This document shows positions 1,021-36,121 of a DNA stretch of 64,000 bases, piece after piece. The DNA is from Clostridia bacterium. GTDB taxonomy: Bacteria > Bacillota > Clostridia > Oscillospirales > RGIG8002. Position 1 is the stretch's first letter; each line of letters opens with the position of its first letter. Below the pieces are notes generated by a model that was given only the letters and a program-made list of their open reading frames with translations, was not told the DNA's origin and ran no database searches. Where the stretch lies: contig JAFZQJ010000022.1 of the NCBI GenBank assembly GCA_017620395.1, forward strand, positions 72,977-136,976. The letters run 5' to 3'. The position numbers were made by a program, and so were the translations under genes.

Positions 1021-1749
1021 ATGAAGCTGTTAAGGAAGATATTCCCGAAATACGCGGTCATTCCCCTTTGGACCGTACTGGGTTTCAATATGCTTGCCTA
1101 TTACCTGCCGAAGCTGCTTTTACTGCTCGGCGTTATCGGTCCTCCGCATATGCTTGCGGAAGATACGACGGCAAACGTAAATTTGATATTTCTCGGCGTT
1201 GACGTCCCGCTCGTTCCCGTATTCATAATCATATACGTGCTTTCGTACGTGCAATGGGTCGTCGGCTTCACGCTTATCGCAAGGGAGAGCGAAGAACTCT
1301 GCTATCGCTTCATGACCGGAGAGATCATCGCGAAGTTCATTTCTCTGACGGTATTTATACTCTACCCGACGATGATGACGCGGCCGGAAATAACGCAGAC
1401 CGGTCCGTTTTATACGCTTGTCGGCTGGATGTATTTCATCGATACTCCGATGATCAACCTCTTCCCGTCGCTCCATTGCCTCGAAAGCTGGATGTGTTTC
1501 CGAGGGTCGCTCCATCTGAAAGGTATCAGAAAGTGGTACGCGCCGGTTTCCTTCGTATTCACGATGCTCGTGTTTGCTTCAACCGTACTGATACACCAGC
1601 ACGTTCTGATAGACATACCGGCCGGCGTGCTGGTCGCCGAGATCGGCCTTCTCATCTGCCGCTTGACACGCGCAGACCGGATCTTTGCGTCCATTAACAA
1701 AAAGCGCCTCGCAACAGACGCCCGAAAGGAAATGTCACTTGAGCAATAG
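1021..1749 (+). CDS. PAP2-superfamily membrane protein (SMS/IPC-synthase-like PAP2_C type phosphotransferase or phosphatase)
   Basis: Polytopic hydrophobic protein. FPSLHC resembles the PSGH-type C2 motif, and STVLIHQHVLIDIPAG resembles the S..(H)xxxD C3 motif (compare HYTxDV of sphingomyelin synthases). RBS GGAGGAG lies upstream of the ATG. Confidence 0.55.
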   Translation: MKLLRKIFPKYAVIPLWTVLGFNMLAYYLPKLLLLLGVIGPPHMLAEDTTANVNLIFLGVDVPLVPVFIIIYVLSYVQWVVGFTLIARESEELCYRFMTGEIIAKFISLTVFILYPTMMTRPEITQTGPFYTLVGWMYFIDTPMINLFPSLHCLESWMCFRGSLHLKGIRKWYAPVSFVFTMLVFASTVLIHQHVLIDIPAGVLVAEIGLLICRLTRADRIFASINKKRLATDARKEMSLEQ

Positions 1750-2830
1750 CCCGACTAACGAAAGCGAGAACGACGTAAAGCAACAGCGCGGCTCTCACCG
1801 CGTTCTGTGGTCTATTCTCTTTATAGTCATAGCGGCGCTCAGCGTGGTTGCCGTAACTTCCTTCAACCGCAACTTTCATTTCAGCGAGTTTTTCAAAAGC
1901 GCCACCTCCGCTTCTGCTCCGTGGATCGTCGCGGCGGTATGCGGCACGTTTGGATATATTCTGTTTGAAGCGCTTTCGCTGATGTATATATGCCGTTCCT
2001 TCGGATACGGAAGACGCCTGAAAAGCGGACTGCTCTACTCTTCAACCGGATTCTACTTTTCATCGATAACGCCGTCCGCGACCGGCGGTCAGCCTGCGCA
2101 GGCGTACGTAATGATAAAGGACGGTATCCCCGGAGTATTCGCCGCGATCGCGCTTCTCGTCAACCTGCTGATGTACACTCTTTCAATCGCGGTGCTCGGC
2201 ATCTTCGCTTTTATCGCACGGCCTTCGCTGTTTATGAAGTTCAGCGTTGTGTCCCGTATTATGATAATCGTCGGCACCGTCATACAGTTCACCCTCGCGT
2301 TGCTGGTGCTTATACTTTTGAAAAACAAAAAACTCCTTCACGGCATCGGCAGACGGCTGATCCACTTCATAGCGAAGCTGCATATCATACGCGACGAGGA
2401 CAAGCTGCAAAACACCTTCAGCGACAAAATGGCTGAATACGACAAATACGCGGAGTATCTCCACGGCAAGCGTCCGATGATGGCCAAAGTGCTCGGAATA
2501 AACATTTTGCAACGCGCTTCGGTCATCTCGGTAACGATGTTTACGTTCATCGCGCTGGGAGGACGCGGAGCCGAGATATTCAATATCTTCGTAATGCAGA
2601 TCTACGTTCTGCTTGGTTCGACCTTTGTGCCGATACCCGGCTCGATCGGCGTTACGGACTATCTGATGATTGACGGTTTCAGCAATCTTATAAAAAAATC
2701 GCCTGTAACGCCGGGAACGCTCGAGCTTTTGAGCCGAACGCTTTCATTCTACATCTGTGTGTTCGCATGCGGACTGTTTATGCTTTACATCTATTTCAAG
2801 GGGAGAAAAAACAATGATAGGAATATATGA
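1739..2830 (+). CDS. Flippase-like / lysylphosphatidylglycerol-synthase transmembrane-domain protein (UPF0104 family)
   Basis: Multi-pass membrane protein. It has a charged N-terminus, then WSILFIVIAALSVVAV, and the motif SSITPSATGGQP typical of the LPG_synthase_TM family. The tracked ORF starts at 1685, but the TTG at 1739 preceded by AAGGA (8-nt spacing) is the more likely start. The start is uncertain. Confidence 0.6.
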   Translation: MSNSPTNESENDVKQQRGSHRVLWSILFIVIAALSVVAVTSFNRNFHFSEFFKSATSASAPWIVAAVCGTFGYILFEALSLMYICRSFGYGRRLKSGLLYSSTGFYFSSITPSATGGQPAQAYVMIKDGIPGVFAAIALLVNLLMYTLSIAVLGIFAFIARPSLFMKFSVVSRIMIIVGTVIQFTLALLVLILLKNKKLLHGIGRRLIHFIAKLHIIRDEDKLQNTFSDKMAEYDKYAEYLHGKRPMMAKVLGINILQRASVISVTMFTFIALGGRGAEIFNIFVMQIYVLLGSTFVPIPGSIGVTDYLMIDGFSNLIKKSPVTPGTLELLSRTLSFYICVFACGLFMLYIYFKGRKNNDRNI

Positions 2831-3560
2831 CTACACCGTCATACTGACGTATCTGTCGCTGGCGTCCGCTACGCTCGGCACGATTATATCCCTGACGGGC
2901 AACGGCCATCCGTACATAGGGGCGTTCTTTTTGCTGTTCTGTGGACTCTGCGACGCGTTTGACGGAAAGGTAGCGAGAACAAAAAAGGACCGCACTGACA
3001 GCGGGCGCAAGTTCGGAATACAGATCGATTCGCTTTCCGACGTCGTCGCTTTCGGCGTTCTTCCCGCCTGCATCGGATACGCGGCGCTTAACACCTCCCC
3101 GCTTTTCCGCGGTATATATCCGCAGGCTTCCGCGGTCGAACCTCCCGCGATTTTTAAAGAGCTTTTCGGCGGAGTCGAATGGTATTTCATCGCGCTGAAA
3201 ATCGCCATTATCGCCGTACTCGTGCTTTTCTCGCTCGCGGCTCTGATACGCCTTGCATATTTCAACGTCAAAGAAGACGAGCGCATGCAGACCGCACCGG
3301 ATTCCCCGACGACGTATACCGGACTTCCCGTAACTTCGTCCGCCCTCATCTTCCCCACCGTTCTCCTTCTGCGCTATATCTTCGACCTCACGCTCGGCGT
3401 CGATTTGACTCCCCTGTATTTCGTTACTATGCTGATTACAGGTTATCTCTTCCTTGCGAAGTTCAGCTTCAAAAAACCGACGATGAAGCAGGTGTTGATA
3501 ATGGTCGCCATCGGCGCCATCGAGTTTATTGCGATATCTATACTGCTTATCTTCAATTAA
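2814..3560 (+). CDS. pssA: CDP-diacylglycerol--serine O-phosphatidyltransferase (CDP-alcohol phosphatidyltransferase family)
   Basis: Signature DAFDGKVAR-x8-GIQIDSLSDVVAFG matches D-G-x2-A-R-x8-G-x3-D-x3-D. The ATG at 2814 is preceded by GGGGAG. It sits immediately upstream of psd. Confidence 0.8.
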   Translation: MIGIYDYTVILTYLSLASATLGTIISLTGNGHPYIGAFFLLFCGLCDAFDGKVARTKKDRTDSGRKFGIQIDSLSDVVAFGVLPACIGYAALNTSPLFRGIYPQASAVEPPAIFKELFGGVEWYFIALKIAIIAVLVLFSLAALIRLAYFNVKEDERMQTAPDSPTTYTGLPVTSSALIFPTVLLLRYIFDLTLGVDLTPLYFVTMLITGYLFLAKFSFKKPTMKQVLIMVAIGAIEFIAISILLIFN

Positions 3561-3574
3561 GGAAGTGAGCCGTC

Positions 3575-4399
3575 ATGGGCGAAAGCAAATCCGTAAGAAT
3601 CCTTTATAACAACGCATTCGGCCGTCTGTGCTTGAAAATTATCAAGCGCAGATGGCTTTCGCGTCTTTGCGGCAAATATCTGGATTCCCGCCTCTCCAAG
3701 CATTTGATTAATAAGTTCGTCACGAAGAACAACATAGACTTGTCGCAGTACTACGCCGATGATTTCAAATGCTTCAACGACTGCTTCTGCAGACAGATAC
3801 GCGAAGGATACCGTCCGATTGATACGGATCCTCACTCGCTTATTTCGCCGTGCGACGGACTGCTGACTGCTTACAGCATAAGCGGCGATACCGTGCTTCC
3901 GGTCAAGCAAAGCAGATACACGGTATCCTCCCTGCTCCGTGACGATAATCTCGCGCGAAGATTCGAAGACGGTCTGTGCCTCGTATTCCGTCTCTGTGTT
4001 GATAACTATCACCGCTACTGTTATTTCGACGGCGGCAAAAAAGACGATAACGTCTTTATCCCCGGATTTCTGCATACGGTAAGGCCTACGGCGCTTGAAG
4101 CGCTGCCCGTGTTTATCGAGAACTGCCGCGAATACACTCTGATGCACACCGAAAACTTCGGAGACGCCGTGCAGATAGAGGTCGGCGCCATGCTCGTCGG
4201 CAAGATCGACAACTATCACGGCGTTCACGAATTCAGCCGCGGCGAAGAAAAAGGGCGTTTCTTATACGGAGGAAGCACCGTAATTCTCCTTCTCGAAAAA
4301 GGATGCGCTTCAGTTGACGGGGCGTTTAAGCTCGATTCCGGAGAAGAGATCCCGGTCGTGATGGGACAACGCATCGGACGCTCGTGTCAAAATGAGTAG
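3575..4399 (+). CDS. psd: Phosphatidylserine decarboxylase proenzyme
   Basis: SPCDG motif (LISPCDGLL) and the self-cleavage GST motif (FLYGGSTVILL) near the C-terminus. It is adjacent to pssA. Confidence 0.85.
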   Translation: MGESKSVRILYNNAFGRLCLKIIKRRWLSRLCGKYLDSRLSKHLINKFVTKNNIDLSQYYADDFKCFNDCFCRQIREGYRPIDTDPHSLISPCDGLLTAYSISGDTVLPVKQSRYTVSSLLRDDNLARRFEDGLCLVFRLCVDNYHRYCYFDGGKKDDNVFIPGFLHTVRPTALEALPVFIENCREYTLMHTENFGDAVQIEVGAMLVGKIDNYHGVHEFSRGEEKGRFLYGGSTVILLLEKGCASVDGAFKLDSGEEIPVVMGQRIGRSCQNE

Positions 4400-4474
4400 A
4401 TTTTTATATAAAGTTGTATAATCGTCATATAATTACACATCCGGTATTGCTATAATGCAGTCGTAAACTGAATA

Positions 4475-4570
4475 CTCTTCCGGCCCGGGAGAAGCGCGGT
4501 GAGAATCCGCCGCAACAGCCATTACCGTATCTGACGGAAACGTCACAAGTCGGGTCGCCTACCGGAAGAG
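4475..4570 (+). promoter_or_regulatory. Cobalamin (B12) riboswitch aptamer, compact form
   Basis: P1 pairs CTCTTCCGG (4475-4483) perfectly with CCGGAAGAG (4562-4570). The core GGGAGAAGCGCGGTGAGAATCCGCCGCAAC resembles the conserved GGGAA..GGTGnnAATCC..GCAAC. There is a GACG-GAAA-CGTC GNRA hairpin (4533-4544) and a B12-box-like AGTCGGGTCGCCTACC (4549-4564). A candidate extended -10 promoter, TGCTATAAT, lies at 4448-4456. The downstream genes are typical B12-regulon genes. Confidence 0.7.
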
Positions 4571-4657
4571 AGTTCGGCTCCGTTTTATCGGAGAACGCTT
4601 TTGGGCAGCGAAGAGCGTGAACATTCCGCCGATTCAATCGGTCTTGTTTTGTTATAC

Positions 4658-4690
4658 GCCTTTTCTGCTCAAACAGCGGAAAAGGCTTTT
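4658..4690 (+). terminator. Intrinsic terminator forming the riboswitch expression platform
   Basis: GCCTTTTC (4658-4665) pairs with GAAAAGGC (4679-4686) and is followed by TTTT. It lies directly upstream of the GGAGG RBS and the ATG at 4710. Confidence 0.6.
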
Positions 4691-4709
4691 ATAAATGGAG
4701 GAAAAAACA

Positions 4710-6371
4710 ATGAAACACATCAAGAGAATCCTGACCGTTCTGCTCGCCCTCGCTATAGTTACAGCCGCGCTGCCTATGGCGGTATTTGCCGGCGCGCAGC
4801 ATCAGATGACCGTCACTCTTCGCATCGAAGGTGCGGCGCAGAACTTTTACTATGATACGCTGACTATTCAATATTCCTCGGCGAACCTCACCGTTCAGGA
4901 TCTGATCATATACGCCGACAATAACAGCGACGCCATTACCGTCGTCGGCGCGACCGGGTCCGCCCCGTATATAACGGACATCAACGGCGACGTTGCCGGC
5001 GCGATGGGCGGGTATTCCGGATGGCTCTACACCGTGAACGGCGAGGAGCCGCCCGTCGGAGTCAACAATTACAATCTGAAAGAAGGCGACAGCGTCGTCT
5101 TCTACTACGGCGATCCTTACGGAGTCGGTATGCAGTACCCTGTTCCCGACGTTTCCGATATCGCGAACGGCGTTATCCGCTTCACGAGCATGGATACAAC
5201 TTATGATTCCGACTGGAACCCCGTTGTTTCCGAAAACCCCGTTGCCGATATGACCGTCGTCTTCGGCGGCGAAACGCCCGTTACTTACGTTACCGACAAA
5301 GACGGAAAGATCACAATAGAGGAACAGTATCTCACCGCCGGCGAGCATTCTCTCTCGATCGACAAAAAGGGCGACAAGGGCGTTCCGCTCGTCCTGCGCC
5401 TCGCGCCCGACTATAAAGTTTCCGTACCCGAGAAACCCAAAACGATGACCGTCAAGCTTCGCATCGAAGGCATAAACGAAAACCTTTTCTATGACGACGT
5501 CACGGTATCGTACACGTCCGATAGTCTCACTGTTCAGGATATGATCGTCTACGCCGACGAACAGAACGAAAATCTGACCGTAGTCGGAGCCGACGGCGCC
5601 TCCCCTTACATTACAAGCATCAACGGTGACGCCGCGGGCACCTTCAGCGGCTGGGACGGCTGGCTGTTCACCGTCAACGGAATCGAAGCCGCAACCGGAA
5701 TAAACGGCGTCAATCTCGCAGACGGAGACTCAGTCCTTTTCTACTACGGCGATCCCTACGGAGTCGGTATGCAGTACCCTGTTATCGACGCAGCCGAAAT
5801 CGACAGCGGAGTTATCCGCTTTACCAGCAACGACACGACGTATGACGGCGACTGGAATCCCATCGTTACCGCCAACCCGGTCGTCGGTATGACGGTCACC
5901 ATCGGAGAGGTCACGTTCACCACCGACGAAGATGGGAAAATCGCATTTGACAACGCTCTCCTGCCCGCCGGCAAGTACTCGATCTCTATTGACAAAAAAG
6001 CCGAAAACGGTCTGCCGCTCATCCTCCGTTTCGCTCCCGACGCCGAGATCGACATCCCCGAGCTTCCCGCGGCAAACATCCTCCCCGGCGATATGGACGA
6101 CGACGGCGAGATTACCGTCAACGACGCTTTAAGGGTTCTTCGTATAGCCGCAAAGCTTGTTCCCGTCACCGGTGAAGCGCTCGCGATCTGCGATATGGAC
6201 GGCGACGGCGAGATCACCGTCTCCGACGCGCTCTACGTCCTGCGCATCGCCGCGAAGCTTATTCCCGCTCCCGGCGGCCAACAGCCCGGCGGTGACGAAC
6301 CCGGCACGGGCAAACCCGACTCCGGTCTGACCGGCGTAATGCACGGCGACACCGAAAGAGTTATAAAATAA
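4710..6371 (+). CDS. Secreted protein with two tandem DUF4430 (transcobalamin beta-domain-like) modules and a C-terminal type-I dockerin
   Basis: Signal peptide MKHIKRILTVLLALAIVTAALPMAVFA. The DUF4430 motif occurs twice: GWLYTVNGEEPPVGVNNYNLKEGDSVVFYYG and GWLFTVNGIEAATGINGVNLADGDSVLFYYG. The dockerin has two Ca-loop/helix repeats, DMDDDGEITVNDALRVLRIAAKL and DMDGDGEITVSDALYVLRIAAKL (nt 6087-6260). The GGAGG at 4697-4701 favours the ATG at 4710 over 4695. Confidence 0.75.
   Translation: MKHIKRILTVLLALAIVTAALPMAVFAGAQHQMTVTLRIEGAAQNFYYDTLTIQYSSANLTVQDLIIYADNNSDAITVVGATGSAPYITDINGDVAGAMGGYSGWLYTVNGEEPPVGVNNYNLKEGDSVVFYYGDPYGVGMQYPVPDVSDIANGVIRFTSMDTTYDSDWNPVVSENPVADMTVVFGGETPVTYVTDKDGKITIEEQYLTAGEHSLSIDKKGDKGVPLVLRLAPDYKVSVPEKPKTMTVKLRIEGINENLFYDDVTVSYTSDSLTVQDMIVYADEQNENLTVVGADGASPYITSINGDAAGTFSGWDGWLFTVNGIEAATGINGVNLADGDSVLFYYGDPYGVGMQYPVIDAAEIDSGVIRFTSNDTTYDGDWNPIVTANPVVGMTVTIGEVTFTTDEDGKIAFDNALLPAGKYSISIDKKAENGLPLILRFAPDAEIDIPELPAANILPGDMDDDGEITVNDALRVLRIAAKLVPVTGEALAICDMDGDGEITVSDALYVLRIAAKLIPAPGGQQPGGDEPGTGKPDSGLTGVMHGDTERVIK
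4806..6080 (+). repeat. Intragenic tandem duplication with a 639-bp period (two roughly 213-aa modules)
   Basis: Module 1 starts at MTVTLRIEG (4806) and module 2 at MTVKLRIEG (5445). A 45-nt block, TTCTACTACGGCGATCC[T/C]TACGGAGTCGGTATGCAGTACCCTGTT, occurs at 5100-5144 and 5739-5783 with 44/45 identity, offset by exactly 639 nt. Confidence 0.9.
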
Positions 6372-6387
6372 TCTGACGGAGTCCGAC

Positions 6388-8205
6388 TTGAAAAAGACGC
6401 TTTTCAAAAAATGTATAGCATGCCTGCTGCTGATACTCGTTATCGCGGCAGGCTTTGCCTTGCCCGCAAGCGCGTATTCATCACAAGGCTCAAAGCTCTT
6501 TTCCCTGCTCGCGAACGAAGGCGGATCGCTTCAGGGATATATTGATAACGTTCTTTCGAAAAACGTCGGTACGCACGACGCGGACTGGCTGTTCATCGAC
6601 CTTATGAGGCACGACGGTTCGCTGAACGGAAACAAATACGCGGCAGCGCTTGACGCTTATACTTCCGCAAACGCCCTGACCAAACCCACCGATTATGAAC
6701 GTATCGCGATTGCTTACACGGCCGCCGGAATTTACAACGATTTTGTCGGATCCGCCCTTGAAGCGGAATTAAAAAACAACACTATAAACGCCTTGTTCTT
6801 TGAATTGATCCTTCTTGATTGCGGAGGATACGAAAGCACCAAGAACAAAAGAGAAGGCTTGATAGATGAAATACTCGGCAGCCAGATGTCCGATAACGGC
6901 TGGACTCTTTCCGGCCCGTCGGACGTCGATATGACGGCTATGGCACTTCAGGCGCTTGCTCCGTACAAAAGCAGAAGCAACGTTGCGTCCGCTGTAGAAA
7001 GAGCCCTCGGCTTCCTTTCCGGGAAACAAACCGACAACGGAGATTTCCGCGGCTTCCGGAACACGCTCAGCTGCGAGAGTACCGCGCAGGTCATAATCGC
7101 CTTAACGTCGCTCGGCATTGATCCCGCATCCGACTCGCGCTTTATAAAAAACGGCGCGACCGCTTACGACGGTCTTCGCCGCTATCAGCTTCAAGACGGC
7201 TCATACTGCCATGTAACGGAAATCGCAAAGCGGGATAATATCGCGACCGAGCAGGCGGCGCGCGCGATCGTCGCCGCTGAACGCTTCTCCTCCGGAAAGT
7301 CTTCGTTCTTTTCGTTCAAAAAGCCCGCCACAGCAGAGCCCGACCCGCCGTCCGTCGTAACTCCGGATCATGACTCTTCCGATGATAACCGTGACAACTC
7401 GGGCAATCAGGAAGCTTCACAGCCGGGAGGGTCAACGCCCGAAGGCGGCTCAGGCAACGGCAGCGACGGTACGGAGTCCGATTCCGAGGCCTCGTCCGAT
7501 GAGGCCTCTTCCGGCCAATCGATCGGCGACAGCTCGTTTTACTCGTCCTCGGAATACTCGTCGGAATCAATTATCGGAAGCGTTTCTTCCGGTTCCGATC
7601 CAAGCGATACGACGGGCAACGTCTCTTATAAGTTCTACGTTTGCGGCGCGATAGGGCTTCTTTTCGCGGCCGTCTGCGTGATTCTTGCGATCAAGAAAAA
7701 AGCGTCGCTAAAGAATGTCATACCTATCGCCGTAGTCGCGATCCTGCTCATCTGCGGCGTTCTGCTTCTCAACTTCACTTCCGTCAAAGATTACTATTCC
7801 GTCAACTTGAGCAGCGCCGGTGAAGGTGACAATACCGTCACTATCAGCATCAGCTGCCGCATACTCGAGGGTGTTGAAGAGAACATACCCGAGGACGGAT
7901 ACATCCTCAAGCCGACTAAATACGTTATCAATGAAGGCGACACGGTCTTCGACGCACTGCTCGCGGTAACCCGCGCAAATCAGATAAAAATCAATTACAC
8001 GGGCAACGCCGGAGGGGTTCTGAGCGTATACGTAAGCTCAATCGCGGGTTTCTCGGAGATGCAGTACGGCGCTTTGTCCGGTTGGATCTACCGCGTGAAC
8101 AAATACACTCCGGACGTCGGCTGCGGCAGCTACGATATCAAGGACGGCGACGTTATCGAATGGGTTTACACCCTCGATCTCGGAAAGGACGCTGAAAACG
8201 GATGA
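6388..8205 (+). CDS. Transcobalamin-like surface protein: N-terminal prenyltransferase/terpene-cyclase-like alpha/alpha toroid, Ser/Asp/Gly-rich linker, two TM helices, C-terminal DUF4430
   Basis: TTG start with a signal peptide (LLILVIAAGFALPASA). Repeated QxxDGxW/F-type motifs appear (QMSDNGWT, KQTDNGDF, QLQDGSY). A low-complexity acidic/Ser region spans about nt 7330-7620. TM helices are YVCGAIGLLFAAVCVILAI and VIPIAVVAILLICGVLLLNF. The C-terminal DUF4430 motif is GWIYRVNKYTPDVGCGSYDIKDGDVIEWVY. Confidence 0.7.
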   Translation: MKKTLFKKCIACLLLILVIAAGFALPASAYSSQGSKLFSLLANEGGSLQGYIDNVLSKNVGTHDADWLFIDLMRHDGSLNGNKYAAALDAYTSANALTKPTDYERIAIAYTAAGIYNDFVGSALEAELKNNTINALFFELILLDCGGYESTKNKREGLIDEILGSQMSDNGWTLSGPSDVDMTAMALQALAPYKSRSNVASAVERALGFLSGKQTDNGDFRGFRNTLSCESTAQVIIALTSLGIDPASDSRFIKNGATAYDGLRRYQLQDGSYCHVTEIAKRDNIATEQAARAIVAAERFSSGKSSFFSFKKPATAEPDPPSVVTPDHDSSDDNRDNSGNQEASQPGGSTPEGGSGNGSDGTESDSEASSDEASSGQSIGDSSFYSSSEYSSESIIGSVSSGSDPSDTTGNVSYKFYVCGAIGLLFAAVCVILAIKKKASLKNVIPIAVVAILLICGVLLLNFTSVKDYYSVNLSSAGEGDNTVTISISCRILEGVEENIPEDGYILKPTKYVINEGDTVFDALLAVTRANQIKINYTGNAGGVLSVYVSSIAGFSEMQYGALSGWIYRVNKYTPDVGCGSYDIKDGDVIEWVYTLDLGKDAENG

Positions 8206-9080
8206 CCGATATCAAACGCCTTCACCCGACGGCTCTTTTCATATACTTTCTGACGGTAATACTGCTGCCGATGTTCGTGCTCGACCCGGTTATACTCGCC
8301 CTATCTCTGCTCGGGGCAACGCTTTGCCTCATATGCGTCAGAAAAAGCGGAGAAAAAAGCGGAATACTGCTCTATTCCCTCCTCTTCTTCGGGATAACCG
8401 TTATAAACCCGCTTATTTCGCACAACGGCGACACCGAGCTGTTTTTTATCAACAACAAGCCGGTAACGCTTGAGGCCGTCATATACGGCGCGGTCTCGGC
8501 GGTAATGATAATCGGAATACTGATCTGGTTCCGTTCGTTTTCCGCGGTAATGACCGGTGAAAAGCTGCTGTATCTTGTCGGAAGCGTGCTTCCTAAGACT
8601 TCCGTCATACTGTGCTCCGCGCTGCGGTATATCCCGCTTTTCAAAAAGCAGCACGAAAAGATCAGAGCTGCGCAGACGGCAATGGGACTTTATACCGCCG
8701 ATAACATCACGGACAAGCTGAAAGGCTCCGCGCGCGTGTTTTCGATACTCACCACCTGGTCGCTCGAAAACTCGATCGACACCGCCGATTCAATGAAAGC
8801 GCGCGGCTACGGATTGAAGCACAGGACGTCATTCACTCTTTATAAGTATCACGCTTCGGATATAATCTTCACGATAATAACCGTACTTCTCGCCGCTTCG
8901 GCGATAACCTTCGCCGCGGTCGGCGGACTGTCAATGCAATTCTATCCGAACGTCGCGCTTCCCGAAACGACAACGCTGATAGTCGCTTCATATATTTCCT
9001 ACGGGGCGCTTGCGCTTCTGCCCGCCGTCCTGGAGATAACGGAGATACTCAAATGGAGATACTTAACGTCGAGAATCTGA
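8202..9080 (+). CDS. ecfT: ECF transporter transmembrane (T) component, CbiQ/EcfT family
   Basis: Polytopic protein of typical size. Its start overlaps the upstream stop as ATGA. It precedes ECF-type ATPase and S-component genes. Confidence 0.7.
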   Translation: MTDIKRLHPTALFIYFLTVILLPMFVLDPVILALSLLGATLCLICVRKSGEKSGILLYSLLFFGITVINPLISHNGDTELFFINNKPVTLEAVIYGAVSAVMIIGILIWFRSFSAVMTGEKLLYLVGSVLPKTSVILCSALRYIPLFKKQHEKIRAAQTAMGLYTADNITDKLKGSARVFSILTTWSLENSIDTADSMKARGYGLKHRTSFTLYKYHASDIIFTIITVLLAASAITFAAVGGLSMQFYPNVALPETTTLIVASYISYGALALLPAVLEITEILKWRYLTSRI

Positions 9081-10678
9081 CATTTAAATATCCGAAATGC
9101 GACCGCGAGGCGCTAAGCGACGTTTCGTTCAGCGTAAACGCCGGAGATTTCATTGTGCTTTTCGGTGAGACGGGCTGCGGCAAAACCACGCTTCTGCGTA
9201 TGCTGAAACGCGAGCTTTCACCTGCCGGCGAAAAATCCGGCAGCATACTTTACAAGGGCACCGAGCTTTCCGGCCTTGACGCCAAAACCGCCGCGACCGA
9301 AATCGGCTTCGTTATGCAGAAGCCGGAAACTCAAATCGTCACCGACAAGGTATGGCACGAACTTGCGTTCGGACTTGAAAGCGCGGGAGCTTCAAAAAGC
9401 GCGATAAACCGCCGCATCAGCGAAATGGCGAGCTACTTCGGCATCGGCAACTGGTTCCTGCGCGACGTATCCGAGCTTTCCGGTGGTCAGAAGCAGCTTC
9501 TCAACCTCGCTTCCGTTATGGTAACGCAGCCGAAACTCCTGCTTCTCGACGAACCGACGAGCCAGCTCGATCCTATCGCCGCGTCCGAATTCATATCGAC
9601 TCTTGCCAAACTCAACCGCGAGCTTTCTCTGACGATAATCATTTCCGAGCACCGCCTCGAAGATCTCTTTCTCGCCGCGGACAAGGCGATAGAGCTTAAA
9701 GACGGCAGGCTTATCGCGTACGGAGAGCCGCGCTCTGTCGCCGCGGGAATGGACAAGAGCGACTCTATGGAAGCCGCGATGCCCTGCGCGGTGCGCGTCT
9801 GCAAGGCGCTCGATGCGGACTGCGAATACCCGCTGACCGTCAAGGAAGGCCGCGCGTTTATAGAGAAATACGGCAACGAAACCAAAGAACTGCCCGCGCC
9901 GGAGCGTACTTCCGGCGAAGAAGCGCTGCGTTTTTCACGCGTCTTCTTCCGCTACGGAAGAGAGCTTCCCGACGTGCTCTGCGATCTCGATCTTTCCGTG
10001 AAAGAAGGCGAAATATACTGCCTCCTCGGCGATAACGCCTCAGGTAAAACGACGGCACTATCCGTCGCGGCGGGACTGCTTAAAGCCTATTCCGGCAAAG
10101 TCGAGGTTTTCGGCAAAAAGATTTCCGCCTATAAAAGCGGAGAGCTATACAAAAACTGCGTCGCGATGCTGCCGCAGGACGTGCAGACGGTCTTCCTGCA
10201 TGAAACGATACGCGATGACCTCGCAGAAATAAGCGAAGAACTCTCTTCGCTCCCGTTCGACGTGACGCCTTATCTGGATAAGCATCCTTACGACCTGAGC
10301 GGCGGCGAACAGCAGCTCTGTGCGCTCGCGAAAACGCTTCTGCTCAAGCCGCGCCTGCTTCTGCTCGACGAGCCGACGAAAGGCGTCGACGCCGCGGCGA
10401 AAAGGCGCGTGATCGAAATACTCCGCAAGCTAAAATCAGACGGCGTGACTACTCTGCTCGTCACGCACGACGTCGAATTCGCCGCCTCCTGCGCGGACAG
10501 ATGCGCCTTGTTTTTCAACGGCTCCGTCGCCGCAGTCGAAGACCCCGAAACCTTCTTCTCGGAAAACAACTTTTATACGACCGCCGCAAGCAGAATGAGC
10601 CGCGGGCATTACGACCGCGCCGTAACCGCGGACGACGTCGTGAAGCTTTGCAGAATAAACGGAAGGAAGCCGGCATGA
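9053..10678 (+). CDS. Fused tandem ECF/ABC transporter ATPase (EcfA-EcfA' type)
   Basis: Two complete ABC cassettes. The first has Walker A GETGCGKTT, signature LSGGQKQ and Walker B LLLLDEPTS. The second has GDNASGKTT, LSGGEQQ and LLLLDEPTK. Confidence 0.9.
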   Translation: MEILNVENLTFKYPKCDREALSDVSFSVNAGDFIVLFGETGCGKTTLLRMLKRELSPAGEKSGSILYKGTELSGLDAKTAATEIGFVMQKPETQIVTDKVWHELAFGLESAGASKSAINRRISEMASYFGIGNWFLRDVSELSGGQKQLLNLASVMVTQPKLLLLDEPTSQLDPIAASEFISTLAKLNRELSLTIIISEHRLEDLFLAADKAIELKDGRLIAYGEPRSVAAGMDKSDSMEAAMPCAVRVCKALDADCEYPLTVKEGRAFIEKYGNETKELPAPERTSGEEALRFSRVFFRYGRELPDVLCDLDLSVKEGEIYCLLGDNASGKTTALSVAAGLLKAYSGKVEVFGKKISAYKSGELYKNCVAMLPQDVQTVFLHETIRDDLAEISEELSSLPFDVTPYLDKHPYDLSGGEQQLCALAKTLLLKPRLLLLDEPTKGVDAAAKRRVIEILRKLKSDGVTTLLVTHDVEFAASCADRCALFFNGSVAAVEDPETFFSENNFYTTAASRMSRGHYDRAVTADDVVKLCRINGRKPA

Positions 10679-11349
10679 GAAAGAAGCTCTCGATCGCGAT
10701 CCTGCTGCTTTCCGTACCGATAAGCGTACTGCTCGCGGCGACCGTCTTTTCCGATAAGAGTTACGCCTATCTCTCGCTCGTTATCGTCGTCATATCGCTC
10801 GCGGCGCTCTTCATTTCGTTTGAGAAAAAAGAAAACAGCGCAAGGCAGCTTATCGTGATCTCGATAATGTGCGTGCTGTCGATCGTGGGACGGCTCGTTT
10901 TCGCGGTCATACCCGCGTTCAAGCCGGTAACGGCGATAATAATACTGCTGTCGATGTATTTCGGCGGCGAAGCGGGTTTTATCTGCGGCGCGATGACCGC
11001 GCTGATATCGAACTTCTACTTCGGGCAGGGCCCGTGGACGCCGTATCAGATGCTCGCGTGGGGACTCGTCGGACTCTTCGCCGGCCTGCTCGCCCCTCTG
11101 CTTCGCAGGAATCTGATAATTACCTGCGTTTACGGCGCGCTGTCGGGTGTGATATTCTCGCTGATAATGGATATTCAAACGGCGATGTGGTACACGAACG
11201 AATTCAACCTCGCCGTATACGCGACGAAGATCGGCACTTCCCTGCCGTTCACGATAATTTACGCGGTATCGAACGTCATCTTCCTGCTGCTCCTCGCGAA
11301 ACCTATAGGCAAAAAGATAGAGCGATTGAAGATCAAATACGGAATATAA
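10675..11349 (+). CDS. ECF transporter substrate-specific (S) component, presumably for cobalamin or a corrinoid
   Basis: The ATG at 10675 overlaps the ATPase stop (ATGA). The upstream part of tracked ORF 10501 is Arg-rich out-of-frame read-through of the ATPase gene. It is a six-TM-type small protein with the FGQGPWTPYQMLAWG motif typical of the ECF S family (PF12822-like, from memory). Confidence 0.7.
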   Translation: MRKKLSIAILLLSVPISVLLAATVFSDKSYAYLSLVIVVISLAALFISFEKKENSARQLIVISIMCVLSIVGRLVFAVIPAFKPVTAIIILLSMYFGGEAGFICGAMTALISNFYFGQGPWTPYQMLAWGLVGLFAGLLAPLLRRNLIITCVYGALSGVIFSLIMDIQTAMWYTNEFNLAVYATKIGTSLPFTIIYAVSNVIFLLLLAKPIGKKIERLKIKYGI

Positions 11350-11356
11350 ATAAACA

Positions 11357-11392
11357 ACAAAACGTCCGCCTGTGACCCAGGCGGACGTTTTT
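11357..11392. terminator. Bidirectional intrinsic terminator between convergent genes
   Basis: AACGTCCGCC (11361-11370) pairs with GGCGGACGTT (11380-11389). It is flanked by an A-run on the left and a T-run on the right. Confidence 0.8.
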
Positions 11393-11414
11393 AATCTGTT
11401 GACCGAAACGGAAC

Positions 11415-12335
11415 CTACGCAAGCTTCGCGGATATGCGGAGAACAATCAGCGCGTCGGCGACCGTAACTTTGCCGTCGCCGTCTTTGTCATAAAAGGCGG
11501 AGGCAATTCCCGGCGTGGGTTCAGCAAGCTTCGCAGCGACGCGAAGAACACGCAGCGCATCCGATACCGAATACTCAAAAGATACACTGGGTTCACCTGC
11601 CCATACTGCAGACGCGCTTGTGTGCGCGCTTTCAACATAAGGATTATCCTTAAGTAACTCGGCCGCGCCAACAGACGCTTCTTCTGTTTTTTCTTTCAGC
11701 GAAACGGCGAAAGTGATTCCTACGCGCGAAAGATAATCCGGTTTCACCTCTTCCTTCGGCACTTCTCCTTGCGCAGTGATTATCGAAAGCACGGAATCCC
11801 CATACGACTCGATCTCTATTTCCGGAAGTATATCGCGAAGATCAGGATAAGGATCGCCACCGGGGCCTTCATAAGTGTAATACTGCTCCTTCAGCGTTAC
11901 TATCACTCGGCCGGGCGTTATACCGCCGAGCACCGGTCTCGCCGCAAAGAGATACTGATTATCGTTCAGAATTGCCATCGCCTCTAGGACTGCTTCGCGA
12001 GTTTTTTCACGAAGTTTAACGCGATATACAGTCCTTTGCTTGCCGTAATTCTTCGGCGGAACGATCTCGGTATCGGTTGCCGGATATCTGCCGGTCAGTT
12101 CGTATTCTTCAATATCCAGCTCGGGAAACAACTCGGTAATATCCCCGATGAATATGCCCTTCAGATACAACCTGAGTTCTCCGGGATGAAAGACAGTGTT
12201 TTCATAGTTTTTATACCACTGATCCTCCAGAGGCGTAAAACCATCGCCTTCCGCAAACGCCGTCACGGGAACGACCGCCGCCATAAGCGCAAAACAAAGC
12301 ACTACCGCAATCAAGCGTTTGAACAGTCTTTTCAT
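11415..12335 (-). CDS. Secreted dockerin-containing protein with two tandem roughly 110-aa modules (possibly peptidase-propeptide/I9-like)
   Basis: AAGGAG RBS before the ATG at 12335. Signal peptide MKRLFKRLIAVVLCFALMAAVVPVTAFA. The internal repeat is seen in LFPELDIEEYE...VKLREKTREAVLEAMAILNDNQYLFAARP versus ILPEIEIESYG...VSLKEKTEEASVGAAELLKDNPYVESAH. The C-terminal dockerin reads SVSDALRVLRVAAKLA...YDKDGDGKVTVADALIVLRISAKLA. Confidence 0.6.
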   Translation of the reverse strand: MKRLFKRLIAVVLCFALMAAVVPVTAFAEGDGFTPLEDQWYKNYENTVFHPGELRLYLKGIFIGDITELFPELDIEEYELTGRYPATDTEIVPPKNYGKQRTVYRVKLREKTREAVLEAMAILNDNQYLFAARPVLGGITPGRVIVTLKEQYYTYEGPGGDPYPDLRDILPEIEIESYGDSVLSIITAQGEVPKEEVKPDYLSRVGITFAVSLKEKTEEASVGAAELLKDNPYVESAHTSASAVWAGEPSVSFEYSVSDALRVLRVAAKLAEPTPGIASAFYDKDGDGKVTVADALIVLRISAKLA

Positions 12336-12395
12336 AATTATCACTCCTTTCTTAATAATCAATATCGTTAAAGGATGGTGCACCGTCCGATAACT

Positions 12396-13289
12396 CTAAT
12401 ACTTCTTATCTATGACCAAATAGCACAATCCGCCCTTTTTATCAAGACAAACCTCCACTTTACCCTCTTCAACCGCAAAAGTAATATAGCGTTTCCCGCT
12501 TAAAAAATAATCTGAAATATCGGCGTTCTCGAGCACGTCCATTGCGATATCCGTATCAGCTACAACGCTTTTTGCAATTTCAACGGCTTTTTTCTTGCTT
12601 ATTACATTAGCGAAATGTGATTGGTTTTGATTAACACTCGAGTCATATCTCATCAAGCCGCCTGAAAGAGCGTCGACCGAAACCGTGCTGCCGTCGGATC
12701 CGACGTAACGGTCGATGACGTAACTGCTGCCGGAATCGACGACCGCGGTCGAGCTTTGATAATCAAAGGTCTTGTATTCGCCGTTTATGCGGTATGTGAC
12801 CGCGGGCATATTATCCTTCACGAAATCGCCTTCGGGCTGCTCGGGGACGTCGCTGCCGGAGGGAGTTTCGGAGGATGACGCTGGATCATCCGGGCTCTCG
12901 GCCGAGGAGCCGCTCGGCGCTTCGCTGCCGCGGGAGCGGCTTTCGCCGCTTTGTTCCGACGAGGCGTTGTTTTCGCTATCAGGCTCGGAGCTGCTTTCCG
13001 GCTCGGAGCTGTCGGATTCGCTGCTGTCGACGGGAGCGACTATACCGGAATTGCCGCCGTTCGGGGCGACGAAGTTTTCGCTGCGGAAGGAACCGATCGC
13101 TTTCAGCGCGAGCGGCGTTCCGGCGGCGATCACGGCTATCGCGACCGCAGCAGCCGCCCACTTCAGCCACGGCCTTTTCACAAACGGCGTAACGCGCACG
13201 GCGCCCGCGCTTTGCGGGGCTTCGTCCGCCGCTTCGATAAGGTCAAAATCCATCAGCCCTATCGTTTCATTTATAAGCTCATAATTCAT
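12396..13289 (-). CDS. Single-pass membrane protein, putative anti-sigma factor partner
   Basis: Its start overlaps the sigma gene's stop by 11 nt. It has a short cytoplasmic N-terminus, a TM helix WLKWAAAAVAIAVIAAGTPLAL, a Ser/Glu/Pro-rich linker and a C-terminal globular domain. No zf-HC2 motif is visible, so the role is inferred from position only. Confidence 0.45.
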   Translation of the reverse strand: MNYELINETIGLMDFDLIEAADEAPQSAGAVRVTPFVKRPWLKWAAAAVAIAVIAAGTPLALKAIGSFRSENFVAPNGGNSGIVAPVDSSESDSSEPESSSEPDSENNASSEQSGESRSRGSEAPSGSSAESPDDPASSSETPSGSDVPEQPEGDFVKDNMPAVTYRINGEYKTFDYQSSTAVVDSGSSYVIDRYVGSDGSTVSVDALSGGLMRYDSSVNQNQSHFANVISKKKAVEIAKSVVADTDIAMDVLENADISDYFLSGKRYITFAVEEGKVEVCLDKKGGLCYLVIDKKY

Positions 13290-13848
13290 AATCCGCTTCC
13301 TCTTTCAAATACTCAGCGAGTGAATCCCGCGTGCGCTTGAGCATCATCTTGACCTTGCTTTTGCCGAAGCCACAGCGCTTGCATATCTCGTCTATCGAAT
13401 CGTAATACCAGTATCGCCGGATGAATACGTTTCGTTCGGTCGTTCCAAGAGAGCGGACGAAATCCGAGATCAAGCTCGCAAGCTCGCGGGCGCCGACCTC
13501 TCCGTCTACGTCGCGGAAAGCCGCGATCTCGCCGAGCTCATCGAGCGAGCCGAGCGACTTCGGCAGGCGCTTTTTCGCGTTATTGCGCAGGCGCCTGTTC
13601 ACCGAGGCGTTGCGGACGAGCATACCGAGATACGCTTTCAGGTTTTCCGGGCGTTTGGGAGGTATGCTGTTCCACGCGGAGAGAAGCGCGTCGTTGACGC
13701 ATTCCTCGGCGTCGCGTTCGTCACCCAGCACGTTCTCCGCTATGTATCGGCAATAAGCGCCGTATTCCTTTTGCGCTTCCGCGACCGCGCTCTCATCTCT
13801 GTTCCAAAATAAAGCGACTATGCTCTTGTCGTTCACGCCGCACTCCAT
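13279..13848 (-). CDS. RNA polymerase sigma-70 family (ECF-type) sigma factor
   Basis: Size and layout fit region 2 (DAEECVNDALLSAWNS) and region 4 with an HTH (YWYYDSIDEICKRCGFGKSKVKMMLKRTRDSL). Confidence 0.75.
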   Translation of the reverse strand: MECGVNDKSIVALFWNRDESAVAEAQKEYGAYCRYIAENVLGDERDAEECVNDALLSAWNSIPPKRPENLKAYLGMLVRNASVNRRLRNNAKKRLPKSLGSLDELGEIAAFRDVDGEVGARELASLISDFVRSLGTTERNVFIRRYWYYDSIDEICKRCGFGKSKVKMMLKRTRDSLAEYLKEEADYEL

Positions 13849-15341: not shown

Positions 15342-15926
15342 TTACTTCACCTTTTCTTCGATCATTGCGATCAGTTCGTTCTTCCCCGCGTCTTCAAAGG
15401 TTGAGAATTCAACGATCTTCACACCGGAGAGCTGTTTTATCGACTGCAGTTTTTCTATGTTCTCGGCGCGCTGGCGCTTGGAGAGCTTGTCGGCCTTCGT
15501 CGCCGCGACGACGTAATCGTAGCCGTAATAGTTGAGAAAGTCGAGCATCATGAGGTCGTCCGCGCTCGGCCCGTTGCGCAGGTCGATGAGCTGAAGCACG
15601 AGCCGCAGGTCGCGTTCGCTCTGCCAAAAAGCGTCCATCAGCTTCATCCATTTTTCCTTTATCTCTTTGGAGACCTTCGCGTAGCCGTAGCCCGGCAGGT
15701 CGACGAAACGGAGCTGCCCGTCTATATTGAAGAAGTTGACGGTGCGCGTTTTGCCCGGCTCGGAGCCGGTCTTCGCCAGCGATTTCCTGCCAAGAAGCTT
15801 GTTGATGAGCGAAGATTTGCCGACGTTAGATTTGCCGGAAAACGCGATCTCCGGCAGGTCGGACGCGAACAGCTGCGAAGGCGCGCCGCAGGAGGTCTCA
15901 AAGCATGCGTTCTGCCACTTTATCAT
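15342..15926 (-). CDS. engB: Ribosome biogenesis GTP-binding protein YsxC/EngB
   Basis: G1 GKSNVGKSSLINKL, G3 DLPGYGYA, G4 TKADK. It lies downstream of lon, as in many Firmicutes. Confidence 0.85.
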   Translation of the reverse strand: MIKWQNACFETSCGAPSQLFASDLPEIAFSGKSNVGKSSLINKLLGRKSLAKTGSEPGKTRTVNFFNIDGQLRFVDLPGYGYAKVSKEIKEKWMKLMDAFWQSERDLRLVLQLIDLRNGPSADDLMMLDFLNYYGYDYVVAATKADKLSKRQRAENIEKLQSIKQLSGVKIVEFSTFEDAGKNELIAMIEEKVK

Positions 15927-18262: not shown

Positions 18263-18323
18263 AGTTTCACCGTAAAAACAGGCGCGGGGCAAGTATCAGC
18301 TTGCCCCGCGTTATTTATTCCGC

Positions 18324-19634
<1,311 letters not shown>

Positions 19635-30369: not shown

Positions 30370-30387
30370 CGATTGGGAGGTTTTGTT

Positions 30388-35639: not shown

Positions 35640-35641
35640 CA

Positions 35642-36121
35642 ATGGAGGAGTTCCGCATATACGCGACCGGCGTCATATTCTCCGTCCTCGCGGCGGGCGC
35701 GGTGTTTCTGCTGCTGCCCGCGAAGCGAGTCGCGAAGCCGGCGCGTATCGCCGCGGCGGTCGCGGTGCTGCTCGTGCTGACCGCGCCGCTGCTGAAGCTT
35801 TCCGGCGACTACCGCGATATAATCGCCGCCGCGGATACCGACCTGCCCCCGCATTACGAAGACCTCGCGGAAACACAGCGCAAGCAGCGCACGGAGCTCG
35901 CGCGGGAGCGTTTTTCGCAATCCGTGCGCGATATTCTCGAACGAAACGGCATAAGCCCGTCTGACGTGAATATATATGTTACGGAGAAAAACGGCGAACT
36001 GCAGCTTTACGACGTAGCGCTGACGCTCCGCTCTGACATTACTGCCGCGGAGCGAAGCAAGGCGATGCGCGTGGTGACGGAGGTTTTCGGCGTTGAGCCC
36101 TCCGTTGAAATAGAAAGGTGA
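35642..36121 (+). CDS. spoIIIAF: Stage III sporulation protein AF
   Basis: Only the last 160 codons of tracked ORF 34886..36121 are used. The ATG at 35642 lies directly after the spoIIIAE stop. There are two N-terminal TM helices, and the operon position fits. Confidence 0.65.
   Translation: MEEFRIYATGVIFSVLAAGAVFLLLPAKRVAKPARIAAAVAVLLVLTAPLLKLSGDYRDIIAAADTDLPPHYEDLAETQRKQRTELARERFSQSVRDILERNGISPSDVNIYVTEKNGELQLYDVALTLRSDITAAERSKAMRVVTEVFGVEPSVEIER

Follow-up and report, generated by a model that had tools for sequence, protein, structure and literature searches.

A probable corrinoid-scavenging operon of a Clostridia bacterium combines a compact cobalamin-type riboswitch, transcobalamin-like surface proteins and a CbrT-type ECF importer

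Bacterial transcobalamin-like SLBB domains fused to alpha/alpha toroids were described by Burroughs, Balaji, Iyer and Aravind in 2007 (PMC1796856); these authors also found that the operon encodes a second paralogous SLBB surface protein and that CbiO-like and CbiQ-like genes adjoin, pointed out that the host genomes tend to be without B12 synthesis, and suggested a role in scavenging vitamin B12. On the transport side, CbrT, which works with an energy-coupling factor (ECF) module, was predicted by Rodionov et al. in 2009 (as cited in PMC5997447) and was validated experimentally in 2018 as an importer of B12 and cobinamide (Santos et al. 2018, PMC5997447); a further paper gives 'CbrUVT' as a B12 transporter (PMC6593275). 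Here we analyse a stretch of 64,000 nucleotides from Clostridia bacterium (GenBank assembly GCA_017620395.1, contig JAFZQJ010000022.1, positions 72,977 to 136,976 of the forward strand), hereafter the window, in which a compact leader RNA precedes five genes, g1 to g5. We consider it very probable that this locus is a self-contained operon for the scavenging of corrinoids (the B12 family) under B12 feedback control.

The three layers of interpretation on which this rests, a cobalamin-type riboswitch with its terminator, transcobalamin-beta-like domains in the products of g1 and g2, and a CbrT-type ECF importer, all survived the tests described below. The five genes occupy 4710-11349 of the plus strand, and their products were confirmed by Pfam, NCBIfam and PDB searches:

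4710-6371, plus strand: g1, a secreted protein of 553 residues with a signal peptide, two repeats of a DUF4430/transcobalamin-beta-like module plus an immunoglobulin (Ig)-like module, a type I dockerin and a disordered tail
6388-8205, plus strand: g2, with a signal peptide, an alpha/alpha toroid, a linker, two transmembrane helices and a C-terminal DUF4430 domain
8202-9080, plus strand: g3, EcfT (Pfam CbiQ, 36.9 bits, cut-off 25)
9053-10678, plus strand: g4, a fused EcfA-EcfA' double ATPase (two ABC_tran domains, 189.4 bits)
10675-11349, plus strand: g5, a CbrT-type S component (PF07155, 41.5 bits, above cut-off)

A gap of 16 nt separates g1 from g2, and the remaining genes overlap, by 4 nt (g2/g3), 28 nt (g3/g4) and 4 nt (g4/g5). 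A first-pass annotation of the sequence had already described five co-oriented, mostly overlapping genes; their products and order hold, but the start of g1 is the ATG at 4710, which sits 8 nt past a GGAGG at 4697-4701, and not 4695 as had been given. The start of g5 at 10675, which produces the overlap with the g4 stop, agrees with an independent gene call. The five genes probably share a single transcript.

That an EcfT, a fused double ATPase and an S component are encoded together was borne out by the Pfam, NCBIfam and PDB searches. The best NCBIfam matches of g4 are TIGR04520 ECF_ATPase_1 (304.5 bits) and TIGR04521 (287.9 bits), each just below its equivalog cut-off. When the PDB was searched with the single g5 sequence the sole match was chain A of the ECF-CbrT structure (6fnp_A, E=6.4e-8), and a profile of 21 S components from operons of this kind reaches E=4.9e-16 for the same CbrT chain (6FNP chain A) and E=0.0045 for the second-best S component, 4hzu_S; no other solved S component matched the 21-sequence profile at E up to 10. 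The Pfam label 'riboflavin' on g5 is generic, because CbrT itself matches both PF07155 and PF12822. As judged from these sequence comparisons, g3-g5 are a dedicated (group I) ECF importer with a CbrT-type, B12-related S component. We note that g5 carries about 55 more N-terminal residues than CbrT of L. delbrueckii (window 10675-10840), and that this extension is conserved in the S components of the operon family; judged from its hydrophobic sequence, it may comprise two transmembrane helices, and it could be a contact for the transmembrane hairpin of g2.

The description of g2 as a toroid plus DUF4430 protein holds, with DUF4430 found by Pfam at 57.8 bits and the toroid seen in the fold of the model; in TCN proteins, DUF4430 forms the C-terminal domain (PMC4350170). 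A PDB sequence search with g2 returned noise only, so a comparison of folds was needed. In the AlphaFold model (predicted local distance difference test, pLDDT, 75 for the whole protein) the toroid comprises residues ~30-310 at pLDDT >90 and is followed by a disordered linker of ~95 residues rich in Ser, Asp and Gly (~317-412), by two transmembrane helices within residues 414-460 that are separated by KKKASLKN, and by the beta domain (~480-603). Because of the positive-inside rule the KKK loop is placed inside and both folded domains outside, and toroid and beta domain are thus both likely to be extracellular. Transcobalamin, intrinsic factor and haptocorrin account for all of the 12 best PDB matches of the g2 model, which span its full length with E from 8e-7 to 7e-5; the next fold matches, terpene cyclases and prenyltransferases, cover the toroid alone. 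Since the alpha toroid accompanies the beta domain, g2 resembles a full two-domain transcobalamin-like protein. The models of g1 and g2 both match transcobalamin and intrinsic factor structures first, in agreement with the earlier proposal that DUF4430 corresponds to the beta domain of these proteins. Relatives of g2 with like architecture number at least 760, and all are named just 'DUF4430 domain-containing protein'.

In g1, annotated at first pass as a tandem-DUF4430 dockerin protein, Pfam does find DUF4430 in two stretches (88.1 bits) together with Dockerin_1 (PF00404, 28.9 bits against a cut-off of 22.9), the dockerin spanning residues ~459-515 with two calcium-binding repeats and two copies of the motif D-x-D-x-D-G-x-I-x-x-x-D. 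The AlphaFold2 model of g1 (pLDDT 83.5) has transcobalamin, haptocorrin and intrinsic factor as its top fold matches. Its two modules, each a beta domain plus an Ig-like sandwich, are 41% identical to each other; each beta module aligns with the human transcobalamin beta domain (5no0, 5np4) at a template-modelling (TM) score of 0.76, with a root-mean-square deviation (rmsd) of 2.7 Å for 5no0, and the dockerin matches 2ccl_B (TM score 0.81) and 8ajy_B, among dockerins of Clostridium thermocellum and Ruminococcus flavefaciens. A scan of ~35 window proteins revealed no cohesin partner for this dockerin. The exact g1 protein is present in NCBI as 'DUF4430 domain-containing protein [Clostridia bacterium]'. 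A large protein search found the two-module dockerin form in ~20 clusters only, the majority of g1 homologues being single modules of ~313 residues with LPXTG, SLH or dockerin anchors. We also note that PDB 3u7z, a 'putative metal binding protein RUMGNA_00854' of Ruminococcus gnavus, matches the g1 DUF4430 module (TM score 0.72); it is a bacterial transcobalamin-beta-like domain that was deposited without an assigned ligand.

The same gene order recurs in relatives. A scan of one genome per species yielded 80 loci (L001-L080), mostly from rumen and gut Clostridia and including metagenome-assembled genomes of Ruminococcus, Acutalibacteraceae, Oscillospiraceae and Lachnospiraceae; 57 of the 80 have g2-EcfT-EcfAA'-S in like orientation, and 69 have g2-T-AA' or more. 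What varies most among these loci is the first gene of the operon. We note that an A-A'-S fusion ECF protein of ~880 residues, with two ABC_tran domains followed by PF07155/PF12822 at residues ~706-863, is encoded in L026 (13050-15695) and L047 (13094-15736) and also in L046 and L079.

Upstream of g1 the first-pass annotation had placed a cobalamin-type aptamer at 4475-4570 with an intrinsic terminator behind it, and direct reading of 4100-4900 located all of the aptamer elements that it had named. The leader is laid out as follows:

4414-4456, plus strand: promoter-like AT-rich region with three TATAAT boxes (4417-4422, 4428-4433 and 4451-4456)
4470-4574, plus strand: aptamer of Cbl-II-like architecture, from sub-threshold Rfam matches, the covariance model R1 described below, and covariation
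4484-4493/4, plus strand: junction J1/3, 11 nt
4494-4511, plus strand: P4/L4, loop UGAGAAU
4512-4524, plus strand: L5 segment
4518-4520, plus strand: L5 triplet GCC, preceding CAUUA and pairing with L13 GGC at 4604-4606 (loop positions 2-4)
4525-4527 with 4551-4553, plus strand: P6
4532-4545, plus strand: P6 extension hairpin, 5 bp with a GAAA loop (P6 insert of 19 nt)
4547-4561, plus strand: J6/3, B12-box-like
4578-4593, plus strand: variable spacer hairpin CUCCG-UUUUAU-CGGAG (minimum-free-energy fold), between aptamer and P13
4595-4618, plus strand: P13/L13 hairpin, the predicted anti-antiterminator, with 5' arm ACGCUUUU (4595-4602), loop GGGCAGCG (4603-4610) and 3' arm AAGAGCGU (4611-4618)
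4596-4623 with 4651-4679, plus strand: predicted antiterminator, formed by the P13 loop, its 3' arm and downstream bases, and taking in the terminator 5' arm
4628-4654, plus strand: weak terminator-like hairpin GCCGAUUCAAUCGGU followed by the U-rich run CUUGUUUUGUU, inside the antiterminator loop
4658-4690, plus strand: intrinsic terminator GCCUUUUCUGCU-CAAAC-AGCGGAAAAGGC followed by UUUU

The outer helix P1 has the nine pairs claimed for it, CTCTTCCGG (4475-4483) being the exact reverse complement of CCGGAAGAG (4562-4570), and can be extended by four pairs beyond an A/A mismatch (4470-4473 with 4571-4574). The conserved core GGTGAGAATCC (4498-4508), the GNRA hairpin GACG-GAAA-CGTC (4533-4544) and the B12-box-like segment AAGTCGGGTCGCC (4547-4559) are likewise present, and the junction core as a whole has the L4 hairpin GGUGAnAAUCC, P6, the B12-box J6/3 and the outer helix, with covariation. 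Folding of the 271-nt leader gives z=-5.07 relative to shuffled sequences, none of 200 shuffles being equally stable. Cbl-II riboswitches are defined by the absence of the P2 loop-stem-loop between P1 and P3 and by a P6 with a short loop or hairpin extension only (PMC7367189). Because it has no P2 arm (J1/3 being 11 nt) and a short P6 hairpin (19-nt insert), the aptamer reads as Cbl-II in architecture; by its sequence it could belong to either subclass, IIa or IIb, and so could prefer either adenosylcobalamin (AdoCbl) or the smaller methyl- and hydroxocobalamin (Me/HO-Cbl).

With its flanks included, the aptamer has RF01482 (AdoCbl) as its best Rfam match, at 29.0 bits (E=0.0014, full model) against a gathering score of 50; a scan of the aptamer alone places RF01482 at exactly 4475-4570 with 23.5 bits. 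The aptamer thus scores below the gathering thresholds of RF00174, RF01482 and RF01689 (clan CL00101). The first-pass annotation had named an Rfam scan as the check on the leader and the lack of a significant covariance-model hit as refuting it, which at curated thresholds is formally the outcome; since the Rfam result is sub-threshold, the riboswitch question was settled by a comparison of related loci, which alone rescues the call.

With the window leader as query, nhmmer located 47 homologous stretches, every one of which is on the operon strand at a distance of 1.2-1.7 kb upstream of g2, and a cobalamin-type leader core is present in ~60 of the related loci. In a sample of 12 loci whose leaders were scored at the curated thresholds, Rfam calls RF00174 in four (L004 at 60.5 bits, L033, L037 and L045), RF01689 (AdoCbl-II) in three (L028, L064 and L075) and nothing in five (L001, which is the closest relative, L036, L023, L066 and L080), as in the window. 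Because sibling leaders at the equivalent position pass Rfam as RF00174 or RF01689, the window leader is one member of a continuous RNA family, some members of which already count as cobalamin riboswitches. We built a covariance model, R1, from 13 compact homologous leaders; in 1.39 Mb it has 52 matches at E<0.01, none of them on the strand opposite to the operon. Its one strong match in the window is at 4473-4619 (89.1 bits), and with search filters off it finds no second cobalamin-type leader there above 16.4 bits, the next best score. In the R1 alignment, which is fitted to R1 itself, standard pairs occupy 89.2% of cells, as against 77.5% in shuffled alignments and at most 56.3% with slid partners; double-sided changes occur in 21 of 25 pairs (182 cells), and none of 500 shuffles reaches any of the observed measures. 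The outer helix of the window lies one column out of register in this alignment, and because of this shift helix-1 pairing is understated and P2 arms of other leaders are mixed in. Read directly, the outer helix is CUCUUCCGG/CCGGAAGAG in the window, GUCUGA/UCAGAC in L031, GUCCGA/UCGGAC in L028 and CGAACGA/UCGUUCG in L032.

Among 67 leaders of L001-L080 the P6 insert is at most 8 nt long in 15, 9-40 nt in 35 and more than 40 nt in 17; these lengths were used alone, the detection of P2 arms by folding of upstream segments being unreliable. We note that the sibling leaders cover every cobalamin-riboswitch architecture, from a P6 loop only through a short hairpin to a long extension like that of class I, some having a P2 arm and others none. 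We also note that L026 (11705-11832), L047 (11725-11858) and L013 (11703-11830) have, besides the cobalamin-type leader ahead of the first gene, a second one placed between the g2 homologue and EcfT, as does L046 at ~11650-11720, where there is a regex core match only. Because of this second leader, the capture and importer genes would each have their own switch in these loci.

The intrinsic terminator expected downstream of the aptamer is there, a hairpin at 4658-4686 of 12 pairs (6 of them G-C) with a loop of 5, followed by TTTT. The actual switching elements are predicted to be the P13/L13 hairpin and the antiterminator, both of which the first reading of the sequence had overlooked. P13 is conserved in 52 leaders, with all 8 of its pairs varying on both sides and 88.8% of cells paired. 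The GCC of L5 and the GGC of L13 are, by sequence, the two sides of the L5-L13 kissing loop, a feature common to all cobalamin riboswitch classes (PMC7367189). In the alignment (columns 68-70/260-262) one position of this triplet is GC in 23 leaders, AU in 10 and GU in 9, and the second variable position is UA in 24, CG in 16 and UG in 3. The full three pairs can form in 42 of 52 leaders, whereas 5000 permutations average 25.5 and never exceed 34; with each combination counted once the figure is 8 of 14 versus 4.1, which 10 of 5000 permutations reach.

Minimum-free-energy folds of the growing transcript alternate between two structures. P13 is formed up to a transcript end at 4660 (-19.4 kcal/mol); for ends at 4670, 4675 and 4680 the antiterminator is best (-26.1, -30.2 and -36.6 kcal/mol); and at 4690 P13 together with the terminator is slightly better (-38.1 kcal/mol). 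A terminator-like hairpin lies 3' of P13 in 48 of the 52 related leaders, and pairing between the P13 3' arm and the terminator 5' arm is predicted, from snapshot folds, in 33 of 48. Family-wide, a conserved GCAGC past P13 is complementary to a GCUGC directly before the terminator. The conserved GCAGCCG after P13 had been considered as a separate motif, which was rejected, as it belongs to the antiterminator. The spacer hairpin is conserved across leaders in position, not in sequence or length. We note that L001 has a weak hairpin similar to that at window 4628-4654 in the matching place. At the other end of the leader, the third TATAAT has an upstream TG (TGcTATAAT, 4448-4456) and on direct reading is an extended -10; a consensus promoter scan did not list the region because it has no -35 match. 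A promoter is likely at 4414-4456.

From structure prediction and conservation, the leader is most likely a transcriptional OFF switch of the standard type. Transcription would start at ~4460 and proceed through the Cbl-II-like aptamer (4470-4574). With a corrinoid bound, the kissing loop between L5 (4518-4520) and L13 (4604-4606) would lock P13 (4595-4618), the antiterminator could not form, and the terminator at 4658-4690 would stop transcription short of g1. In the ligand-free state, the P13 loop and 3' arm would pair with the terminator 5' arm, allowing read-through into the five genes. As for the proteins, we suggest that g1 is secreted and docked via its dockerin to a cohesin-bearing surface scaffold, where its two beta modules would serve as an outer capture layer, and that g2, held in the membrane by its helical hairpin, would clamp the corrinoid between toroid and beta domain in the manner of transcobalamin. 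g2 would then pass the corrinoid to g5, and EcfT and EcfA-A' (g3 and g4) would drive inward transport with ATP. It is conceivable, though we hold this tentatively and think it rather doubtful, that the arrangement amounts to a two-tier relay of Gram-positive gut and rumen Clostridia, assembled from the parts of the animal B12 carriers, in which a beta-only antenna (anchored by a dockerin here and by SLH or LPXTG in relatives) feeds a membrane-bound alpha+beta clamp whose transmembrane hairpin docks on the N-terminal extension of the S component. If so, an ECF transporter would here work with extracytoplasmic binding proteins, against the way in which the class is usually described, and bacteria would offer a model for the ancestral form of transcobalamin and intrinsic factor.

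The operon is bounded upstream by a phospholipid-synthesis cluster whose last gene, phosphatidylserine decarboxylase (psd), stops at 4399, and downstream by a terminator that closes both the operon and a convergent gene (11415-12383, minus strand). The other features identified in the window are:

66-863: GH125 fragment
1021-4399: PAP2, LPG-synthase, PssA and Psd cluster
11359-11394, both strands: bidirectional intrinsic terminator AAAACGTCCGCCTG-TGACC-CAGGCGGACGTTTTT, from a minus-strand call of 14 pairs and direct reading
13279-13848, minus strand: sigma factor of the extracytoplasmic function (ECF) type, beyond proteins of 322 and 297 residues
14039-15340, minus strand: lysA-like decarboxylase
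18324-19634, minus strand: clpX
30373-32487: Beta_propel protein
34886-36121: SpoIIIAF-like, a weak match below cut-off
37300-39456, minus strand: Tex
52026-53699, minus strand: recN
55005-56846, minus strand: dxs
61580-62578, minus strand: yidC

Genes for MetRS and a Glu/Gln-tRNA synthetase were also identified, and the 64-kb context is the chromosome of a spore-former. The convergent neighbours in 11415-13848 (minus strand) include the proteins of 322 and 297 residues, neither of which has a Pfam match; the former has a signal-peptide-like start and one dockerin-like calcium motif, and the region looks like a sigma/anti-sigma unit. An open reading frame of 812 residues at 15905-18343 (plus strand) was rejected as a gene, as it has no family match and is the shadow of lon at 15923-18292 (minus strand; Lon_C, 282.6 bits).

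Several observations weigh against a corrinoid-scavenging operon under riboswitch control. At curated thresholds, Rfam has no match of any family in the whole window, and none to tRNA at gathering score. Matches of the g2 toroid to the squalene-cyclase/prenyltransferase Pfam families are weak and below cut-offs, and PF01122 Cobalamin_bind is not among the Pfam matches of g1 or g2 at E<=0.01, so that the relation of g2 to transcobalamin rests on its fold together with the beta domain; the geometry between its domains is unreliable in the model (predicted TM score, pTM, 0.53; rmsd of ~13 Å to transcobalamin). In many related loci the first gene encodes a surface protein of ~300 residues in which Pfam does not see DUF4430; Pfam detected the domain in one of ten such proteins, phmmer and hmmsearch for the g1 module found nothing in them with a hidden Markov model that was contaminated by EcfT sequences, and hhalign against the DUF4430 profile gave 56% probability and behaved unreliably with single sequences. 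Among the loci sampled, these proteins may be single-module homologues of g1. Finally, neither a cohesin nor a B12-dependent enzyme nor a cobamide salvage gene was found within the 64-kb window.

The substrate is where a rival account has experimental backing. For lsa1836-1840 of L. sakei, a homologous five-gene unit, heme uptake phenotypes were reported and heme was docked between the alpha-like and beta-like proteins (bioRxiv 10.1101/864751), which speaks against a corrinoid. We nevertheless think it very unlikely that the window operon imports heme or another tetrapyrrole: upstream of this operon, as of >50 orthologous ones, lies a cobalamin-type riboswitch whose kissing loop covaries, cobalamin riboswitches are described only as corrinoid sensors in the literature searched (PMC7367189, PMC11477304), and the L. 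sakei paper makes no mention of a riboswitch (0 occurrences). Moreover, g5 is nearest to CbrT, a proven transporter of B12 and cobinamide. The association of the operon with cobalamin riboswitches in >50 genomes therefore favours a corrinoid substrate over heme. To a cobalt/nickel (CbiMNQO-type) or riboflavin ECF transporter we give next to no credence. Such a transporter is suggested by the family names PF02361 CbiQ, TIGR01166 cbiO and PF07155 ECF-ribofla_trS, and by the fact that cobalamin riboswitches also govern cobalt ECF importers (PMC11477304); yet CbiM and CbiN are absent from the operon, Rfam scans of the window and the leader found no flavin mononucleotide (FMN) riboswitch, the names are generic, and the S-component profile places CbrT far ahead of 4hzu_S.

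Two further alternatives question how the parts work together and leave the substrate aside. The leader might be a decayed or chance look-alike, the operon being constitutive or otherwise controlled; the hairpin at 4658-4686 could then be a plain attenuator or belong to psd as its terminator, the psd stop being just 260 nt away on the 5' side. The best Rfam match in the window does fall 21 bits short of the gathering score. We judge such a look-alike exceedingly unlikely, given that the RNA is kept upstream of orthologous operons despite differing upstream genes, that every helix and the L5-L13 kissing loop show compensatory changes, that sibling leaders pass Rfam, that a designed-looking alternation of P13, antiterminator and terminator runs through the family, and that TATAAT boxes lie between psd and the aptamer. 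It is also possible, though in our view quite unlikely, that g1 and perhaps g2 do not feed the importer and serve instead for sequestering, surface storage or cobamide selection while the ECF-CbrT module works by itself, as does ECF-CbrT of L. delbrueckii, which operates without an extracytoplasmic binding protein (PMC5997447). ECF transporters are indeed described as a class without soluble binding proteins (bioRxiv 10.1101/864751), g1 would be docked away from the membrane, and its gene is the part of the operon that varies most. Set against this, in 57-69 of the 80 loci g2 is in strict synteny with EcfT, AA' and S, it is membrane-tethered beside the transporter, and co-regulation by B12 starvation suits acquisition more than storage. 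We retain the reading of the locus as a probable corrinoid-scavenging operon in which g1 and g2 would supply the importer.

How Gram-positive gut and rumen bacteria acquire corrinoids is still called an open problem (PMC6593275). No test of B12 binding by bacterial transcobalamin-like proteins is reported in the literature searched, and the sole experimental study of a homologous unit led to heme. The association with riboswitches in >50 genomes is a strong and cheap argument for a corrinoid substrate, and it marks g1 and g2 as candidates for binding tests. The locus also suggests, from its sequence, that Rfam thresholds miss compact cobalamin riboswitches, and orthologous operons with every architectural class of the riboswitch form a natural series for the study of ligand selectivity.

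Among known riboswitches, the leader has most in common with Cbl-II (env8 type, RF01689) and RF01482, with which it shares the four-way junction core, the L4 GGUGAnAAUCC, the B12-box-like J6/3, the lack of a P2 arm, the short P6 extension and the L5-L13 kissing loop. It differs from the RF01482 consensus in P6, which is CCG/CGG in place of CUG/CAG, and in that no P5 stem is detectable around L5, where pairs are non-canonical; unlike Cbl-II and RF01482, its platform is transcriptional, with P13 and the terminator as separate elements. The importer resembles ECF-CbrT of L. delbrueckii (6FNP) and CbrUVT, a predicted transporter of the dedicated kind, in its S component, its EcfT, its two ATPase domains and its predicted substrate, B12 or cobinamide. 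In the window, however, the ECF module is dedicated and operon-encoded, whereas that of L. delbrueckii is shared; the ATPases are fused, g5 has its ~55 additional N-terminal residues, two transcobalamin-like proteins are co-encoded, and the unit is under riboswitch control, whereas the CbrT paper makes no mention of a riboswitch (PMC5997447). With lsa1836-1840 of L. sakei (bioRxiv 10.1101/864751) the operon has five parts in common, the S component, AA', T, a beta-like and an alpha-like part, but there alpha and beta are separate proteins and heme is the assigned substrate, whereas here alpha and beta are joined in one membrane-tethered protein and there are, in addition, a beta-only protein and a cobalamin riboswitch upstream.

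The operons predicted by Burroughs et al. share with the window a secreted SLBB-toroid protein, a second SLBB protein, CbiO/CbiQ-like genes and the proposed role (PMC1796856). In that paper the word riboswitch has no occurrence and its retrieved passages mention neither an S component nor a dockerin; judged by those passages, it is only in the window locus and its close relatives that a transmembrane hairpin lies between toroid and SLBB, that a dockerin provides the anchor and that beta modules occur in tandem. An alpha6/alpha6 toroid combined with a beta domain is the layout that the operon has in common with eukaryotic transcobalamin, intrinsic factor and haptocorrin, which are the best structural matches of g2 over its whole length and of g1 in its beta modules; they differ in that identity is ~10-24% and the window proteins have no Pfam Cobalamin_bind match, in that g2 has a ~95-residue linker and a transmembrane hairpin between its domains, and in that g1 has no alpha domain. 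BtuG and BtuH of Bacteroides, surface binders of B12 with high affinity that are co-encoded with an importer under B12 riboswitch control in gut bacteria, are what we take to be a functional analogue. The fold of BtuG is a beta-propeller, unrelated to g1 and g2, and the system is an outer-membrane, TonB-dependent one, not a Gram-positive ECF system. The operon type itself has already been predicted (Burroughs 2007, Rodionov 2009), and the window provides a further example that fills in the known picture and does not change it; what this analysis adds is the family-wide linkage to a riboswitch, the anatomy of the kissing loop and antiterminator, the membrane-hairpin topology of g2 and the dockerin-anchored tandem g1.

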